DNA of 64,000 nt from a virus (taxonomy: Duplodnaviria > Caudoviricetes), in the IMG/VR virus record IMGVR_UViG_3300031998_000004; one strand, 5' to 3'. Positions 3,337 through 12,115 of the stretch are shown piece after piece; position 1 is the stretch's first letter, and the number at the start of each line of letters is the position of its first letter. The position numbers and the translations under genes were made by a program. The notes below the pieces were generated by a model. It did no database searches. It saw only the letters and a list, made by a program, of their open reading frames with translations, and was not told the origin of the DNA.

Positions 3337-4413
3337 TCAAAATACATCATAAGTGTGTTGTTTCCATTCGTTCAAGTCAATCCCGAATGTATTATCTCCT
3401 ACAGGCGTTTCTTTTTTTAATTCGGAGTTAAGAATGATTACTGTTATGACTCCACCTTTAGGATTTTCTTGTAACTGTTTCGTAATGTCTTTTGTACCAG
3501 TGACTTCTCCGTAATTATAAGTATCAACATCTATGTTGGTGTAATAAAGATAGTCAATCTGGGATGTCCAAGAGCTATTAATATCATCAGGCAACAGGTC
3601 CAAAATTGTAACTCGACTAGCAAACACAAGACTATCTGGTGTATGGAACTGCCCTGGTTTAATATCAAAAGTTGATATCTGTTTATTACCTGTCCAGACT
3701 GGGGTGTTTGTGAACATATTCTTTTTTGTTGATATTCCACTCACTGTGAAGTTTACTATGTCTCGAGCCTCAATCAGAGGACTATGATCGTCGTTAACTA
3801 CAATGAACTGAATGACATATATGTATGATACGGGTTCGAGCATTTCATCAATATTATACACATACACGAGTTTTCCATTCTCAATAACCTCTTCAAAATC
3901 TGAGATGTCATTTGAGAGATATATCTCACGTTTATTCATTGCGAACACCTCACCTGGTTGATTCACTGTCTCATACTCATTACTAATAGGATTTCTTGCC
4001 CGTGTGCTCTTTGTAGAAGGAGTTTCCACATAGTATCGCCCACCTTCGTAATAAGTCTCTGTCCAAGGATTATCTTTACTATATATCAACAAGTCATATG
4101 TGTTATTCAATTCAACATCAATGAGTTCCCTCTTTCCTGTCTGTACTCGAGTCTCGGATAAAATCTTTCCCTGATTGAAAATCACAACGTTACATGTTGT
4201 TGGAAGAGTATAAAAGAGTGGTCCATAAAGGTCTTCATCCCAGTTATACTTAAGGGTATCTTGCCATCCTTCCTTCCACATAGCATTGATGTTTGCTTGT
4301 ACCTGTACGTTAATCTTCAATGCAGTGTCTCCTTGGAGGTAGAGAGGTTTGCGCTCACACCCTATGAGTATACTCATTAATAACATTAATCCCAATACAA
4401 CTTTCTTCCACAT
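3337..4413 (-). CDS. DUF5119-like pilus-associated lipoprotein
   Basis: Lipobox ILIGC-ERKPL, C-terminal FGIDLNEW, position within the operon. Confidence 0.7.
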   Translation of the reverse strand: MWKKVVLGLMLLMSILIGCERKPLYLQGDTALKINVQVQANINAMWKEGWQDTLKYNWDEDLYGPLFYTLPTTCNVVIFNQGKILSETRVQTGKRELIDVELNNTYDLLIYSKDNPWTETYYEGGRYYVETPSTKSTRARNPISNEYETVNQPGEVFAMNKREIYLSNDISDFEEVIENGKLVYVYNIDEMLEPVSYIYVIQFIVVNDDHSPLIEARDIVNFTVSGISTKKNMFTNTPVWTGNKQISTFDIKPGQFHTPDSLVFASRVTILDLLPDDINSSWTSQIDYLYYTNIDVDTYNYGEVTGTKDITKQLQENPKGGVITVIILNSELKKETPVGDNTFGIDLNEWKQHTYDVF

Positions 4414-5624
4414 ATCAAATCAAATGTTAAATTAAATCCAACTTCGGTTGGACCAAAATAGTTCATATTAAATCGTCTTGGAACAAAGTCACTAGCTCGT
4501 AAGTACCAGTTATAATAGTATTTAGTATCCCATGGCTGAGAGGCGTGATAGGCATCAAACCTCGTATTAAACCATCCAATCCGACCATACAACTCAAACT
4601 TCCATCTCGGGTGTTTCTTACATTGGAATACATATCCGTATCCCAATCCACATCCATATACTTCTCCTTGATATCCCAGGTCTTTGTTCCAAGCGCAGAA
4701 GTCATAGATAGCGGTATTTGCATAAACTCCAATCCAATGCCCTGTGTACTTGTTATTAAGATATTTTCGGATACCCGCGATTCCATTCAAGAGTTGATAG
4801 TAGAAGTAACTGTCATAATCCTTATGCCACCAAGGGAACGTATAATCAAACTCAAGACTCAACCCCCACAGGTGTGTGTAGAGTTCTGCTTGGACGTTTG
4901 GTGTGATTGCAAGATCGCTCAAAAGATTCGTTTTAACAGCGAGTATTGGGATAACCTTAAGGTTTGGTCGAATTAGGATTGTATCGCGAAAATAGATAGG
5001 TTTTTGGATGAATATAGTATCGTGTTTGAGCTCGGTTAAGATTATAGTGTCTCTTTCGATTTCTTTCATCACTTCCTTTATCACTACCGTGTCTCTTTCA
5101 ATCTCTTTTATGACTTGTGGATATAAGAAATACACCTTAATATCAATTCTTCTGAGTCGTGGGAAGTACTTTTGATTAAGCTCTTTCCAATAGCCAGACC
5201 GAATAAGATCGTGTTTGACATCGTTGCTTGTAGAGAGAATCTTTAAGATTTTACCCTTCCAAGGTTCATTACTCGCTTCAATCAACTTATACAGCCCATC
5301 ATAGTCTTCCGATATAGTTATCTCGTCATCAAGATTCAATATATCACGAACCGCATCAACACGTCCTTGAGCGAGTGCTCGGTTGCCTGAATAAGTACCT
5401 TCTGGTGAAGCAGTACCTGTGATTTTAATATATTTGATGTCGTCTTGATGTTCTTGGATGAACGGGAGTTGACTATTGACGAACTCTTGATAGTTTTCAT
5501 CCTGGATGAACTCTGTAGTGTTGACTTTGAAGTAAAGTGTTGATGTCACTACGGTATCCCGTTGTTGGCTGTATCCGAGCCAACACATACAAAGTAAGGA
5601 CAATATGAGTAGAAGTCTGCGCAT
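4386..5624 (-). CDS. OmpA-like plus DUF3575 outer-membrane protein
   Basis: Signal peptide, GTASPEG..N..LA..R, AVKTNLL, C-terminal YFGPT. Confidence 0.8.
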   Translation of the reverse strand: MRRLLLILSLLCMCWLGYSQQRDTVVTSTLYFKVNTTEFIQDENYQEFVNSQLPFIQEHQDDIKYIKITGTASPEGTYSGNRALAQGRVDAVRDILNLDDEITISEDYDGLYKLIEASNEPWKGKILKILSTSNDVKHDLIRSGYWKELNQKYFPRLRRIDIKVYFLYPQVIKEIERDTVVIKEVMKEIERDTIILTELKHDTIFIQKPIYFRDTILIRPNLKVIPILAVKTNLLSDLAITPNVQAELYTHLWGLSLEFDYTFPWWHKDYDSYFYYQLLNGIAGIRKYLNNKYTGHWIGVYANTAIYDFCAWNKDLGYQGEVYGCGLGYGYVFQCKKHPRWKFELYGRIGWFNTRFDAYHASQPWDTKYYYNWYLRASDFVPRRFNMNYFGPTEVGFNLTFDLICGRKLYWD

Positions 5625-7349: not shown

Positions 7350-7784
7350 TTACCATCTTTTCCATTCATCCCAACCACGTTGAGTAACACCTTTCTGATC
7401 CTGAGGAAGAGCACCGCTTTCGTAGAACTCTTTACTTACATGTACTCTTTTTTCTCCATACTTAACTGTATTTAAATACATCCAATACTTATCATCACCA
7501 ATTCTGTATCCTTTGACTGTTCCAAATCCTGGTAGCATGTCTTGCTCTACATCTAGTCCATCAACCTTTTTACAGTAGTTGATGATTCTAGCATAAAGAT
7601 TTCGTCCATCTTTAACTGTTACCGTCGAAGGATTTATCTCATACCACTCTCTACTACTTCCCTGATAGTCACGGCAAAGAGCAACCCCGTCTCCGAAGAA
7701 CTTCTTAATTACATAAGCAAGTTTCTCGGGAACTATTTTACTTTTGACGTTATCTGTAAAGAGACTTTCTTGTAGTGATTTCAT
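7350..7784 (-). CDS. MKSL-family hypothetical protein
   Basis: N-terminus MKSLQESLF. Confidence 0.7.
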   Translation of the reverse strand: MKSLQESLFTDNVKSKIVPEKLAYVIKKFFGDGVALCRDYQGSSREWYEINPSTVTVKDGRNLYARIINYCKKVDGLDVEQDMLPGFGTVKGYRIGDDKYWMYLNTVKYGEKRVHVSKEFYESGALPQDQKGVTQRGWDEWKRW

Positions 7785-9064
7785 ACTAAACTTTCTTGTA
7801 AGGATTTTGGTTTCATAGTGTATTTACTATAACCAATGATACGGTTGAGTGGAACGAATCCACCAGTCCACTTCATCATCTTGCCTTTATAACTGAATAC
7901 TATACCTTCGGCACTTCTGAGATTCTCTTCACCAATCTCCCTTAAAACATCTAACCACTTCTGTAAGAATTCGTTATCTTCGAGAGAACCTTCCCTTCTG
8001 ATCTTTTCGGTGGCAACTTTCAAATCACCAAGAAGACTCTTGATGGTTCCATCTTGCCCGTCATTAACAAAACCACTGGTCACTTTAATAACATCAGCAC
8101 CCATACTATAGAAGAAATTTTGAAGTGGTGTGAGTACAGTATTAACTACTTTACTAGATGTCTTATCAAGTTTAACAAAACCATCAAGATTATCCTGATA
8201 TATTGCTTTGAGGTCCTTGAGAGATGCAGCTGTCTTATCTCCAAACACCCATCTCCTACAACAATCCATTGCTGCTTTATGATCCTCGCCTAACCACGGT
8301 TCATATTTCTCAACCCATTTAAAGAAGAGACTATATTTGAGACCTTCTATAGTAACATCTGGAGCACAATCGCATTGTTTTAAGAACTTCTGCCACTCAC
8401 CCAACCATTTCTTTTCGAGTTTTGCAGTTTCCTCACTATACTTAATGATAACAGGAGGAGTGATCTTCGCATTGTCGATTCCCTCACAAGCCTTTTCCAA
8501 CACATCTAGTCCTTTCTTGGTTACTTCTGTATTCTTCCATTCACTATCACTTTCTTGTTTTTCGTATATCCATATATTATGAAAGTCTACTTGATCAGAA
8601 GGATAGGGAATAGTATTTGTAGTTCCTGCAAGGATACATTCGCAGTTAACAACAAGTCTCTTAAGGGGCGATGGATTAAACCACTCTGGTCCGATCTTCC
8701 TAAACACAGCTTCAATGATCTTACCACCACGCGTGTAGTTATCAAGAGCATGGGGATTCTCCTTCCATTGTTCTGCAAAATCACTTAATGTCATTCCACC
8801 TTTCTCACTATTGAGATTGGTTTTATTGCGAATGAATACGACATCCCCTTTAGGATTCATACTTGCTTGCATACCAAATCCATCCATCTTCTCTGTCATA
8901 CCTTCCATCTTGCCCCCGAACATGGTACGGATAAGTTCTTCGATATCATATCCAGTAAACTCATCCACATCATATGGATGGAGCATATGTCCACTTGCTC
9001 CACCTTCAAGAACTGGCTCATTAATAGATAGTCTTTCTGTAAAATATTGTGAAAAGTGTTTCAT
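7781..9064 (-). CDS. DUF6267-like conserved T4-type phage protein with a ligase-like KxDG motif
   Basis: EGGASGHMLHPYD, TEKMDG, EGIVF...KWTG. Confidence 0.65.
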   Translation of the reverse strand: MKHFSQYFTERLSINEPVLEGGASGHMLHPYDVDEFTGYDIEELIRTMFGGKMEGMTEKMDGFGMQASMNPKGDVVFIRNKTNLNSEKGGMTLSDFAEQWKENPHALDNYTRGGKIIEAVFRKIGPEWFNPSPLKRLVVNCECILAGTTNTIPYPSDQVDFHNIWIYEKQESDSEWKNTEVTKKGLDVLEKACEGIDNAKITPPVIIKYSEETAKLEKKWLGEWQKFLKQCDCAPDVTIEGLKYSLFFKWVEKYEPWLGEDHKAAMDCCRRWVFGDKTAASLKDLKAIYQDNLDGFVKLDKTSSKVVNTVLTPLQNFFYSMGADVIKVTSGFVNDGQDGTIKSLLGDLKVATEKIRREGSLEDNEFLQKWLDVLREIGEENLRSAEGIVFSYKGKMMKWTGGFVPLNRIIGYSKYTMKPKSLQESLV

Positions 9065-10076: not shown

Positions 10077-10154
10077 TGGTAGCCCGGGTGGGATTCGAAC
10101 CCACATCTTTTTCGCTTTTGAGGCGAACACGTCTCCCAGTTGCGTCACCGGGCC
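10077..10154 (-). tRNA. tRNA-Leu(CAA), short variable loop, CCA encoded
   Basis: Cloverleaf, loop CT-CAA-AA. Confidence 0.88.
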
Positions 10155-10160
10155 ATTATA

Positions 10161-10664
10161 CTATTTCTTCACAACCCAGTCAGCAAGAGTAGTGATAAGA
10201 GGACCGAAGGTCTTATAACGAACCTCGAATCCATATGACTCAAGCCATCCCTTTGAAGAAGCATAAGCTACATTGGAGCCAGCGTCTTCACGTGGGTTGA
10301 TATCAATGTCTATGTAACGGACAGGAACACCGCTTTCACGAATCCTCATGGCGACATCAAGTGATGCCTGCGTCTCAGCAGTCATTCTATCGAAGATTTC
10401 GGTCTTCTTGTAGCGTCTGGTCTTCCAACGACTGAACACACAGTGAGCGCCGTGCCCGTGTCCATCCCCATCACCTTTGTCATACATAGCGACTATAGTT
10501 GAGAATACAGTGTATGGTCCTTTGTTCTGTGAGTCGGTTCCAACCATCACATCAATATTCTGGTGGGTACTGTAGTACTCTTTCACATACTGCTCAATGT
10601 TGTCTAGCTTCTCTCCAGTAAACTTCTTAAATGAGAAAGCTCCATTTATCTTCTCTTGTTCCAT
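10161..10664 (-). CDS. RNase H-like YkuK/DUF458 family protein
   Basis: VGTDSQ, E...S, IDIDIN, ADW motifs. Confidence 0.8.
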   Translation of the reverse strand: MEQEKINGAFSFKKFTGEKLDNIEQYVKEYYSTHQNIDVMVGTDSQNKGPYTVFSTIVAMYDKGDGDGHGHGAHCVFSRWKTRRYKKTEIFDRMTAETQASLDVAMRIRESGVPVRYIDIDINPREDAGSNVAYASSKGWLESYGFEVRYKTFGPLITTLADWVVKK

Positions 10665-10687
10665 GACTATATTTATTTAATCTTTTG

Positions 10688-10776
10688 CGGAGAGCACTGG
10701 AGTCGAACCAGATCCGGGTTTTAACCGAACGAACCGCCTTCCAAACGGACGCCCTCACCGTCGGGCTTTACTCTCC
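10688..10776 (-). tRNA. tRNA-Ser(GGA)
   Basis: Type II cloverleaf, G73. Confidence 0.88.
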
Positions 10777-10785
10777 ATTATAATG

Positions 10786-10874
10786 CGGAAGAAGGAGGAG
10801 TCGAACCCCAAGCCTTGTTTAAGGGCTCAATCCGCTTTCGAGACGGTTTCGGTCACCGTTCCGATTCTTCTTCC
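10786..10874 (-). tRNA. tRNA-Ser(CGA)
   Basis: Type II cloverleaf, loop CT-CGA-AA. Confidence 0.9.
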
Positions 10875-10882
10875 AAACCGTG

Positions 10883-10966
10883 CGGAGGGAAGAGGAGTCG
10901 AACCCCAGCCCAAAAGGACCAATCCGCTTTCAAGACGGTTCCCATCTCCGTCAGGGTTTGCCCTCC
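10883..10966 (-). tRNA. tRNA-Ser(TGA)
   Basis: Type II cloverleaf, loop CT-TGA-AA. Confidence 0.9.
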
Positions 10967-10975
10967 ACAGTGTTG

Positions 10976-11066
10976 CGGTGGGAGTGGGGCTCGAACCCAC
11001 GCGCCGGGTTTTAACCGACCTAACGGTTTAGCAAACCGTCCCCTTCACCAACTTGGGTATCCCACC
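10976..11066 (-). tRNA. tRNA-Ser(GCT)
   Basis: Type II cloverleaf, loop TT-GCT-AA. Confidence 0.92.
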
Positions 11067-11073
11067 GGGTACT

Positions 11074-11409
11074 TTATATCTCTTTATTCTGTAACATCCT
11101 CAGAGCTTCACGAGTACCAGGACATTTGTCATTGACATAGTCTTCATCGAATGCCCCGTTCTTGTCCCAACAAGCTTCTACGATTGCAATGTTGGAAACA
11201 ATCACACCATCGATATTTTTACTCAGACCTTTGATCGCGGGTGTGAGATCATCGATGTTGGCCGGTTTCTCTCGCCCGACTAGCCAGACTTCATTGTGTC
11301 TGGTTACAACCTGACCCCATGTGACCTTGAAGATGTTTTTAAGGAACTCTCCTACCTGTGGCGTCTTCTTACCACGTTTTGAAATGATAATGCTGTAAAC
11401 GTTATACAT
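11074..11409 (-). CDS. Hypothetical protein, first gene after attenuator 2
   Basis: 111-aa ORF. Confidence 0.65.
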   Translation of the reverse strand: MYNVYSIIISKRGKKTPQVGEFLKNIFKVTWGQVVTRHNEVWLVGREKPANIDDLTPAIKGLSKNIDGVIVSNIAIVEACWDKNGAFDEDYVNDKCPGTREALRMLQNKEI

Positions 11410-11449
11410 ACTTAATGTTTTGTTTTTTGTTTATTGAGTTATATATAAC

Positions 11450-11478
11450 AAAAAAGAGCTGCATCTTTTGTGCAACTC
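11450..11478 (-). terminator. Attenuator terminator of tRNA operon 2
   Basis: GAGTTGCA-caaaaga-TGCAGCTC followed by a T-run. Confidence 0.85.
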
Positions 11479-11511
11479 CGAAAAAAATCACTCGTATACT
11501 AAATTGCACAA

Positions 11512-11577
11512 CTAACCGATAGTCCTATCGAGAGAACTACTCAATGACAATTCAATATTCGCATATGTTCTTTTCAT
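11512..11577 (-). CDS. Putative attenuator leader peptide MKRTYANIELSLSSSLDRTIG
   Basis: 21 sense codons with a TTG TCA TTG AGT AGT TCT CTC run; stop abuts the antiterminator strand. Confidence 0.8.
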   Translation of the reverse strand: MKRTYANIELSLSSSLDRTIG

Positions 11578-11581
11578 ATCC

Positions 11582-11689: not shown

Positions 11690-12115
11690 CGGAAGGTAAG
11701 AGATTCGAACTCCTGGGCCGCTCACGCGACCAACGGTTTTCCTTACACACATTCCTTTCGGATCGTGGTCTGGACTCTATCTTAACCATATTGAAATCTT
11801 GCAAGATACCTTTAGCAGTGTTCCAATACACTATATTAATTCGGACTGGATTTCTTTTTAACCGAACTAAAGATAATTTCAACTTAGGTTCCTCCTGTAT
11901 AGTCTCTACACACTGTCTAACTTATCGGTCTCACTACGTCAAGCTGGGAATTACTCCAACTCCGGACTTAAAAGTTTTAACATTGGCTCGGTATTACCAT
12001 CAGCATTACCTGTTAAGGTTCTACCGAATTAGGGAGGTTCTACTTCTTTTCTTTCAAAAAGAGCACTCGAATTAAAAATCAAGACCGCCGCTTTAGACCA
12101 CTCAGCCAACCTTCC
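11690..12115 (-). tRNA. tRNA-Ser(TGA) interrupted by a group I intron (exons 12115-12081 and 11751-11690)
   Basis: Joining GCGGTCTT and GAAAACCGT restores CT-TGA-AA; long variable arm; G73. Confidence 0.9.
11752..12080 (-). ncRNA. Group I self-splicing intron, about 329 nt, no ORF
   Basis: 5' exon ends in U and intron ends in G; core elements TGTAGAGACT and AAGATAGAGTCC. Confidence 0.88.

Follow-up and report, generated by a model that had tools for sequence, protein, structure and literature searches.

Large phages carry many tRNA genes, and how the expression of these genes is controlled is largely unknown. The question arises in a specific form in a phage of the Caudoviricetes represented by IMG/VR record IMGVR_UViG_3300031998_000004, a genome of 239,809 bp (~240 kb) with 37% G+C and at least 37 tRNA genes. 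The window analysed here is a stretch of 64,000 nucleotides corresponding to bases 85845-149844 of this record. On its minus strand, which holds nearly all genes in the region concerned, a tRNA-Gly(CCC) gene is followed by a short open reading frame (ORF) of 21 codons, an intrinsic terminator and a unit encoding four serine tRNAs and tRNA-Leu(CAA) (Table 1). Does translation of this ORF decide whether the tRNA genes behind it are transcribed? A preliminary description of the locus had proposed that it does, and the answer favoured here is that the element is a trp-type leader-peptide transcription attenuator, exapted from a truncated small-peptide gene and acting on read-through into the Ser/Leu(CAA) unit, a reading in which confidence and doubt are about evenly balanced. 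The element is referred to as leader 2, leader 1 being a comparable unit elsewhere in the window.

Architecture and predicted switching of the candidate leader

The components listed in the preliminary description are all present, including the ORF with its run of TTG TCA TTG AGT AGT TCT CTC, the terminator and the five downstream tRNA genes. The first six of these control codons are read by Leu(CAA), Ser(UGA), Ser(GCU) and Ser(GGA), which are four of the five tRNAs encoded behind the terminator. Serine codons and TTG together account for 7.35% of the codons of the genome (TTG for 14.8% of its leucine codons), and a six-frame count over the 239.8-kb genome gives only four runs of at least six such codons, one of which is that in the leader. 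A Ser-rich ORF would come to lie beside a Ser-tRNA array by coincidence with a chance of roughly 1-in-100 to 1-in-1000.

The proposed 11-pair complementarity between the sequence behind the stop codon and the 5' arm of the terminator is likewise borne out. Starting one base after the stop, TTGTGCAATTT (11511-11501) is antiparallel to GAGTTGCACAA (11478-11468) in nine Watson-Crick and two G-U pairs, and the duplex between segments 2 and 3 has an energy of -13.4 to -13.8 kcal/mol (RNAduplex). Dinucleotide shuffling of the 95 nucleotides upstream gave a mean of -7.6 kcal/mol, and 996 of 1000 such shuffles fell short of the observed -13.8 kcal/mol (p=0.004). The minimum free energy fold of 11581-11445, which includes the terminator, reaches -38.3 kcal/mol (z -3.56), and the ORF region without the terminator still gives a z-score of -2.8, compared with -0.4 to -1.4 in related phages, so that the region is unusually structured in this phage only. 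The shuffles behind the z-scores for the ORF region without the terminator and all those used to assess switching, including those for the relatives below, preserve mononucleotide composition only. The structure responsible is a long imperfect hairpin of ~96 nucleotides that follows tRNA-Gly and buries the start codon in its outer stem.

Switching was assessed with a nascent-transcript model in which the RNA extends up to the terminator loop and the ribosome is represented by a 30-nucleotide mask. The probability that the terminator 5' arm is paired upstream is 0.07 when no ribosome is present, rises to 0.97 when the A site is at codons 6-14 and is 0.08-0.25 at codons 16-20. With the A site at the stop codon the arm is captured with a probability of 0.62 through other pairings, and masking at the stop is thus only partly clean. 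None of 300 shuffles reached the contrast between stalled and idle states (highest value 0.63), the mask positions in this test having been chosen after the result of the nascent-transcript model was known. In the genome 60 terminators lie behind an open frame, and among these leader 2 has both the highest stalled value and the largest difference between stalled and idle states.

In the proposed mechanism, transcription would start upstream of the intron-bearing tRNA-Ser(UGA) and proceed via tRNA-Gly(CCC) into the 21-codon ORF. If no ribosome occupies the ORF, segments 1 and 2 would pair and the terminator formed by segments 3 and 4 would fold; a ribosome that reaches the TAG would cover segment 2, and the terminator would form again. 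A ribosome lingering on codons ~6-15, among them TTG TCA TTG AGT AGT TCT, would break the pairing of segments 1 and 2, and the freed segment 2 would capture the terminator 5' arm and permit read-through to the 111-aa gene, the Ser tRNAs, the RNaseH-like gene and Leu(CAA). Slow decoding of these codons would in this way raise the supply of Ser and Leu(UUG) tRNA. Three elements of the scheme are inferred, namely translation of the ORF, stalling on it, and a material contribution of read-through beyond that of a probable promoter close downstream. It is possible, though short of probable, that the phage in this way gauges the decoding speed of Ser and UUG codons with a leader recycled from a host-type peptide gene, slow decoding due to a poor host pool or to cutting by an anticodon nuclease calling up replacement tRNAs, and that together with two more leaders, whose codons also match their arrays, this turns the tRNA arrays into self-tuning regulons that are sensed separately. 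If true, a leader that reads the codons served by its own tRNAs would monitor decoding capacity by direct feedback, which is relevant to codon-usage mismatch as well as to host defences that destroy tRNAs.

Table 1 Features of the tRNA locus, the other leader units and related peptide genes; positions are those of the window unless a genome or contig is named
Feature	Position	Strand	Remarks
tRNA-Ser(UGA) with group I intron	12115-~11689	-	Upstream unit, which runs into the leader, begins with this gene
Parts of intron-bearing tRNA-Ser(UGA)	5' exon 12115-12081; intron 12080-11742 (~339 nt); 3' exon 11741-~11689	-	Intron in anticodon loop
tRNA-Gly(CCC)	11657-11582	-	ARAGORN; Rfam tRNA 47 bits
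Candidate leader ORF (leader 2), 21 codons	11577-11512	-	MKRTYANIELSLSSSLDRTIG; ATG 11577-11575, TAG 11514-11512
Control codons	11550-11530	-	TTG TCA TTG AGT AGT TCT CTC; from sequence
Segment 1	11558-11545	-	Pairs with segment 2 in long hairpin enclosing the whole ORF
Segment 2	11511-11496	-	TTGTGCAATTTAGTAT; alternative partners segment 1 or terminator 5' arm
Intrinsic terminator (segments 3 and 4)	11479-11455	-	GGAGTTGCA / loop CAAAAGA / TGCAGCTCT; ~-9.5 to -11 kcal/mol; T6 at 11455-11450
Promoter-like cassette	11453-11440	-	TTTTGTTATATATA; overlaps T-run
111-aa ORF	11409-11074	-	Function unknown; between terminator and Ser tRNAs
tRNA-Ser(GCT)	11066-10975	-	ARAGORN
tRNA-Ser(TGA)	10966-10882	-	Rfam; ARAGORN at 85% threshold; missed by default ARAGORN
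tRNA-Ser(CGA)	10874-10785	-	ARAGORN
tRNA-Ser(GGA)	10776-10687	-	ARAGORN
167-aa RNaseH_like (PF04308) ORF	10664-10161	-	Pfam E 1.4e-12; between Ser tRNAs and Leu(CAA)
tRNA-Leu(CAA)	10154-10077	-	ARAGORN; last gene of the unit
Strong terminator	10073-10049	-	AAGGATCTCTTTAAGGGAGGTCCTT + T-run; -12.3 kcal/mol; closes the unit
Leader 1	6772-6695	-	MRTNIGHIGIRGQHQGWCGRTTMLK; before Cys, Gly, Trp, Ile, His, Arg, Thr, Gln, Thr array
Third short ORF	genome 46170-46105 (unit to 46020)	-	MRKYNAYLPVALFDQLKDEER; outside window; with terminator, directly before Pro/Phe/Glu/Leu/Tyr... array
41-67 aa peptide gene	contig L040 3501-3668		Followed by a hairpin
41-67 aa peptide gene	contig L040 5590-5721		Followed by a hairpin
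41-67 aa peptide gene	contig L043 215-418		Followed by a hairpin
41-67 aa peptide gene	contig L044 995-1198		Followed by a hairpin

Origin of the reading frame and the sequence behind the terminator

Weighing against the attenuator are the origin of the ORF, the way in which it begins, the folding of the complete RNA, the arrangement in several relatives and the sequence behind the terminator. The ORF is not purpose-built, being a truncated and diverged copy of a conserved gene for a peptide of 44-51 aa. Related contigs are labelled with L-numbers and the phage of the window as WIN; L027 was obtained via the RNA-ligase-like gene described below and the other syntenic relatives via homologues of the 111-aa ORF. 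Every syntenic relative has a short ORF upstream of the 111-aa gene and/or the Ser tRNAs, directly after tRNA-Gly(CCC) in L027, L032, L035, L036 and L037, and these ORFs span 27-51 aa as compared with 21 aa in the window. The long form of 44-51 aa is found in six relatives (L035, L036, L037, L038, L039 and L046) and follows the pattern MKKxYxxPxxExVxLxLEQNLLNSSW, then a Ser-rich stretch with up to six consecutive serines (L036, L037) and a tail of RPSxCPCxxCPYGK; the LL motif is encoded as TTG-TTG in most phage copies of the family but not in L046, which has TTG TTA. Synonymous changes in the Cys-rich tail indicate that the long form is under selection at the protein level. The short form of 27 aa, found in L027 and L032, ends just past LLNSS.

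The ORF of the window shares the MK(R/K)xY start with this family, and its Leu/Ser block aligns with the family sequence LLNSS(W)D (33% identity in a hand alignment). The conserved Pro, the EQN block and the Cys-rich tail are absent, and a family profile found no match in the window's genome at E up to 10. Since the family carries an LLxSS motif and a Ser-rich middle, the Leu/Ser richness of the leader is partly inherited. No model for the small peptide exists in Pfam or NCBIfam, and a profile search of 1.8 billion proteins returned further members with other C-termini. The members whose contigs were inspected have no tRNA genes beside them and are flanked by genes for signal-peptide proteins, of which two end in an apparent type IX secretion sorting domain; these members are probably bacterial. 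Peptides of 41-67 aa with the pattern MKKTYIxPxxExVxLxxxQxLLxGS and an acidic tail ending in W or F have such neighbours on Bacteroidota-type contigs (Table 1), and their leader gives the impression of the double-glycine type. Members under the broader family pattern MKKxYxxPxxExVxLxxxQxLLxxS, found in related phages and in Bacteroidota-type bacterial contigs, measure 41-67 aa as against 21 aa in WIN, and the position after tRNA-Gly(CCC) is shared with WIN by family members of related phages.

The ATG of the ORF has a poor initiation context, lying 4 nucleotides past the 3' end of tRNA-Gly with no A/U-rich spacer, whereas the relatives have 16-19 nucleotides at this point. Across relatives the Ser codon content of the ORF does not follow which Ser tRNAs lie downstream. 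No terminator was found between the long ORF and the Ser tRNAs in L035, L036 and L037, and in L035 and L036 two extra genes and a tRNA(CUA) stand between them. All other copies of the phage are 100% identical, four other contigs with the 111-aa gene being so over up to 2.9 kb, and there is therefore no usable covariation within the lineage. The antiterminator energy of leader 2 taken alone ranks tenth of 69 terminators. Full-length RNA at equilibrium always forms the terminator (P >= 0.89), even with ribosome masks, so that a switch could work only kinetically, in the manner of classical attenuators; equilibrium folding neither supports nor refutes such a switch.

The remaining point concerns the motif that overlaps the T-run of the terminator. 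The preliminary description had cautioned that an independent promoter might lie here, and the caution was well founded, for the motif belongs to a recurring cassette. TTGTTATATATA overlaps the T-run in the minus-strand reading, and the combination of a T-run with GTTATATATA is present in three exact minus-strand copies in the window (11453-11442 and, behind other hairpins, 12681-12670 and 14503-14492), with more across the genome. Throughout the genome many ordinary gene boundaries show a hairpin followed by a T-run and TTGTTATATA or one of its variants, TTTTTATATA and TTATTATTTA. The near-identical TTTTGTATTATAATAAC lies 4 nucleotides before the ATG of leader 1, and relatives have the same motif after their hairpins, in L038 directly before tRNA-Ser(GCT). 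Because the terminator carries the TTTTGTTATATATA cassette of ordinary gene boundaries, the Ser unit (11440-10049) probably has its own promoter. With this cassette and a protein gene behind the terminator, read-through is unlikely to be the sole route to the Ser tRNAs. Transcripts reading on from the tRNA unit upstream would supplement those begun at the Ser unit's own start, perhaps at a different time of infection. A second cassette, consisting of a terminator hairpin and TTATTATTTA with an ATG 3-5 nucleotides later, occurs in ~25 copies genome-wide (for example at window positions 13970-13942, 23432, 41395 and 47930). Should the motif act as a promoter, the start codon is so close that the resulting mRNAs would have little or no leader.

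A parallel second lineage and the competing explanations

These points can be assembled into an account without any switch, which we regard as somewhat unlikely. The locus would then be an ordinary gene boundary at which a decaying, frameshift-truncated peptide gene is followed by a standard terminator and promoter cassette marking the end of the Ser(UGA)/Gly(CCC) unit and the beginning of its successor, the Ser/Leu run being inherited and the pairing without function. The long conserved peptide in six relatives and the bacterial family members fit this account, as do a WIN copy too diverged for the family hidden Markov model and without the conserved Pro and Cys tail, the hairpin, T-run and TATA-like motif at many ordinary gene ends, and the poor initiation context. 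The long forms of L038, L039 and L046 also have the hairpin and the same motif behind them, and L039, which combines a long form with a terminator, has no switch. The gene boundary leaves unexplained, however, the three-way complementarity (p=0.004; 0 of 300 shuffles) and the unusually stable hairpin around what would be a former ORF, and it needs the coincidence of a Ser-rich ORF beside a Ser-tRNA array estimated above.

Equally unexplained by a gene boundary is a second truncated lineage with an equivalent switch of different sequence. Just past the stop of the L027 and L032 ORFs lies AAAGACCAA, which pairs either with the Ser-Leu-Ser-Leu codons UUGAGUCUU or with AUUGGUCUUU, a sequence overlapping the 5' arm of a 12-bp terminator. 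These sequences are unrelated to those of the window, and the 111-aa neighbours in the two phages are 45-47% identical to that of the window. The switch score of L027 in the nascent-transcript model is 0.51, a value reached by one of 100 shuffles. In a tree of the 111-aa protein L027 and L032 group with the long-form phages and WIN is the outgroup, and the truncations in WIN and in L027/L032 are therefore probably independent or were moved by recombination. They may have arisen by out-of-frame deletions in the Ser-rich stretch, for which the alignment is ambiguous. A leader seems to have arisen on two occasions, each time in a different lineage and out of a truncated copy of the conserved peptide gene. 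A switch-like structure accompanies the shortened ORFs and not the peptide gene as such, as expected if a decayed gene was recruited as a leader. The search among relatives for which the preliminary description had called has a divided outcome, with a switch-like structure in L027 and L032, none in L039 and no terminator in L035-L037.

The element might instead be a structured RNA that ribosomes do not read, such as a processing site, a stabiliser of the tRNA precursor 3' end or a small stable RNA, which the terminator merely ends. In phage T4 small stable RNAs are released from the tRNA cluster. The long hairpin, with its low z-scores with and without the terminator, the position directly behind a tRNA within a tRNA transcript and the burial of the start codon in the outer stem are in keeping with this possibility. 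It is nonetheless quite improbable, as the hairpin is not conserved in relatives, the complementarity between segment 2 and the terminator arm is left unexplained together with the stop codon that abuts segment 2, and Rfam 15, including its T-box and leader families, gives no match to 11440-11581 at E up to 1. That the 21-aa product is itself a functional micro-protein, a shortened family member with incidental RNA structure, is hardly credible, since the frame and the MK(R/K)xY start are kept at the same place as in relatives but the conserved Pro, the EQN block and the whole Cys-rich tail are lost and all five substitutions between the L027 and L032 ORFs are non-synonymous, which fits relaxed constraint in the short forms.

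In favour of the attenuator are its pairing logic among segments 1:2, 2:3 and 3:4, which is present and statistically unusual, the parallel in L027 and L032 and the match between control codons and tRNAs, whereas the ORF is not purpose-built and read-through is probably not the only route to the Ser tRNAs.

Other candidate leaders, known attenuators and neighbouring genes

The preliminary description had suggested that the other tRNA clusters of the genome be scanned for similar units, and two more combinations of a short ORF and a terminator were indeed found before tRNA arrays (Table 1), which raises the prior that the phage uses the mechanism; the Met x3/Arg array (genome 85918-85390) has no leader and terminator unit. 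The tRNA genes may be grouped into separately sensed regulons, as had been proposed. The leader 1 unit spans 6772-6615 on the minus strand and has a counterpart in L027 (9270-9470) in which the ORF is conserved; each of the 18 residues at codons 5-22 of leader 1 is an amino acid carried by a tRNA of its array. In the model its antiterminator forms by default with a probability of 0.98, falling to 0.37-0.54 only once a ribosome reaches the last codons, a logic simpler than that of leader 2. The third unit has an antiterminator energy of -14.1 kcal/mol, and the three leader units rank 3rd, 6th and 10th in this energy among the 69 terminators. Leaders 1 and 3 share with leader 2 a short ORF written for the most part in the amino acids of its array, followed by a terminator whose 5' arm can pair upstream. 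They differ in that the default of leader 1 is the antiterminator, switched off only by a ribosome at the stop, whereas leader 2 is off by default through its 1:2 pairing; and in leaders 1 and 3 the tRNAs follow directly without a TATA-like cassette, whereas leader 2 has a cassette and a protein gene behind it. Because of the likely promoter behind its terminator and its peptide-gene ancestry, leader 2 is the weaker of the two candidate units in the window.

Compared with the trpL, hisL, leuL, pheL, thrL and ilvL leaders of E. coli and Salmonella, leader 2 has in common a short ORF containing consecutive control codons, segments pairing as 1:2, 2:3 and 3:4 with the last an intrinsic terminator, and a stop codon from which a terminating ribosome would cover segment 2; as in the thr and ilv leaders, two amino acids would be sensed by a single leader. 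The genes behind it are however tRNA genes and two small protein genes rather than biosynthetic enzymes, and what would be sensed is the decoding capacity for specific codons, TTG being read only by Leu(CAA), and not amino-acid supply alone. Unlike these leaders it lies in a phage, within a tRNA transcript that starts with two other tRNAs, has a promoter-like motif behind its terminator and is derived from a peptide gene. Attenuation that links the supply of a translation component to the state of the matching tRNA is shared with pheM of the pheST operon and with T-box riboswitches, but pheM controls a synthetase and not tRNA genes, and T-boxes, of which no match was found here, sense uncharged tRNA by direct binding and involve no ORF. 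A literature search found no published leader-peptide attenuation controlling tRNA genes, and its application to tRNA genes in a phage would, if real, be a new variant.

Downstream of the leader no convincing terminator was found on the minus strand from 11450 to 10073. The 111-aa protein adjoins the Ser tRNAs in all relatives found except L038, which is without this ORF; its AlphaFold model is confident (pLDDT 84.8) and shows a generic ferredoxin-like beta-alpha-beta fold for which the PDB gave no significant match, and the protein has no family in Pfam or PHROG. Scans of IMG/VR and metagenomes with the 111-aa protein, a 175-aa upstream protein and the tRNA-Gly pattern yielded the L027 contig alone, and a search of INPHARED phages returned chance tRNA matches only. 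The RNaseH-like gene is at the same position in the relatives, and proteins of this family occur inside tRNA arrays of this phage group and of much more distant phages (L012, L013 and L018; 33-38% identity), which suggests a role tied to tRNA genes or tRNA processing; near its closest relatives tRNAs were not found. A 427-aa protein encoded at 7781-9064 on the minus strand, between two tRNA arrays, matches RNA_ligase (PF09414) weakly and below threshold (E 6.5e-4). It is 81% conserved in L027 and in L028, a contig whose upstream organisation differs from that of the window's phage, and it may serve tRNA repair beside genes for tRNA supply.

Upstream of the leader, Rfam Intron_gpI matches 11749-12090 with 34.3 bits (E 7.9e-6), below its gathering score of 50, and the exons joined in silico give a class II tRNA-Ser(tga) of 88 nucleotides (ARAGORN). 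L027 also has an intron at this place (~1950-2390). The corresponding site of L032, L035 and L036 is occupied by an unrelated Ser(TGA) gene without interruption, and the intron or its tRNA gene therefore looks mobile. An ORF of ~245 aa with a weak C2H2 zinc-finger match lies between the intron-bearing tRNA and tRNA-Gly in L027 (2477-3223) and directly upstream of the small ORF in L039 (347-1081), and may be a mobile gene of the tRNA region.

A DUF3575/OmpA protein encoded at 4386-5624 in the window points to a host of Bacteroidota type. Simple ORF calling with the standard code gives a coding density of 89% in the window's phage, and wholesale stop-codon recoding is not evident. A suppressor-type tRNA with anticodon UUA lies outside the window (genome 45766-45839, minus strand), and one with anticodon CUA is found in both L035 and L036 at 2877-2948. 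The leader ORFs end in TAG in the window's phage and in TAA in the relatives.

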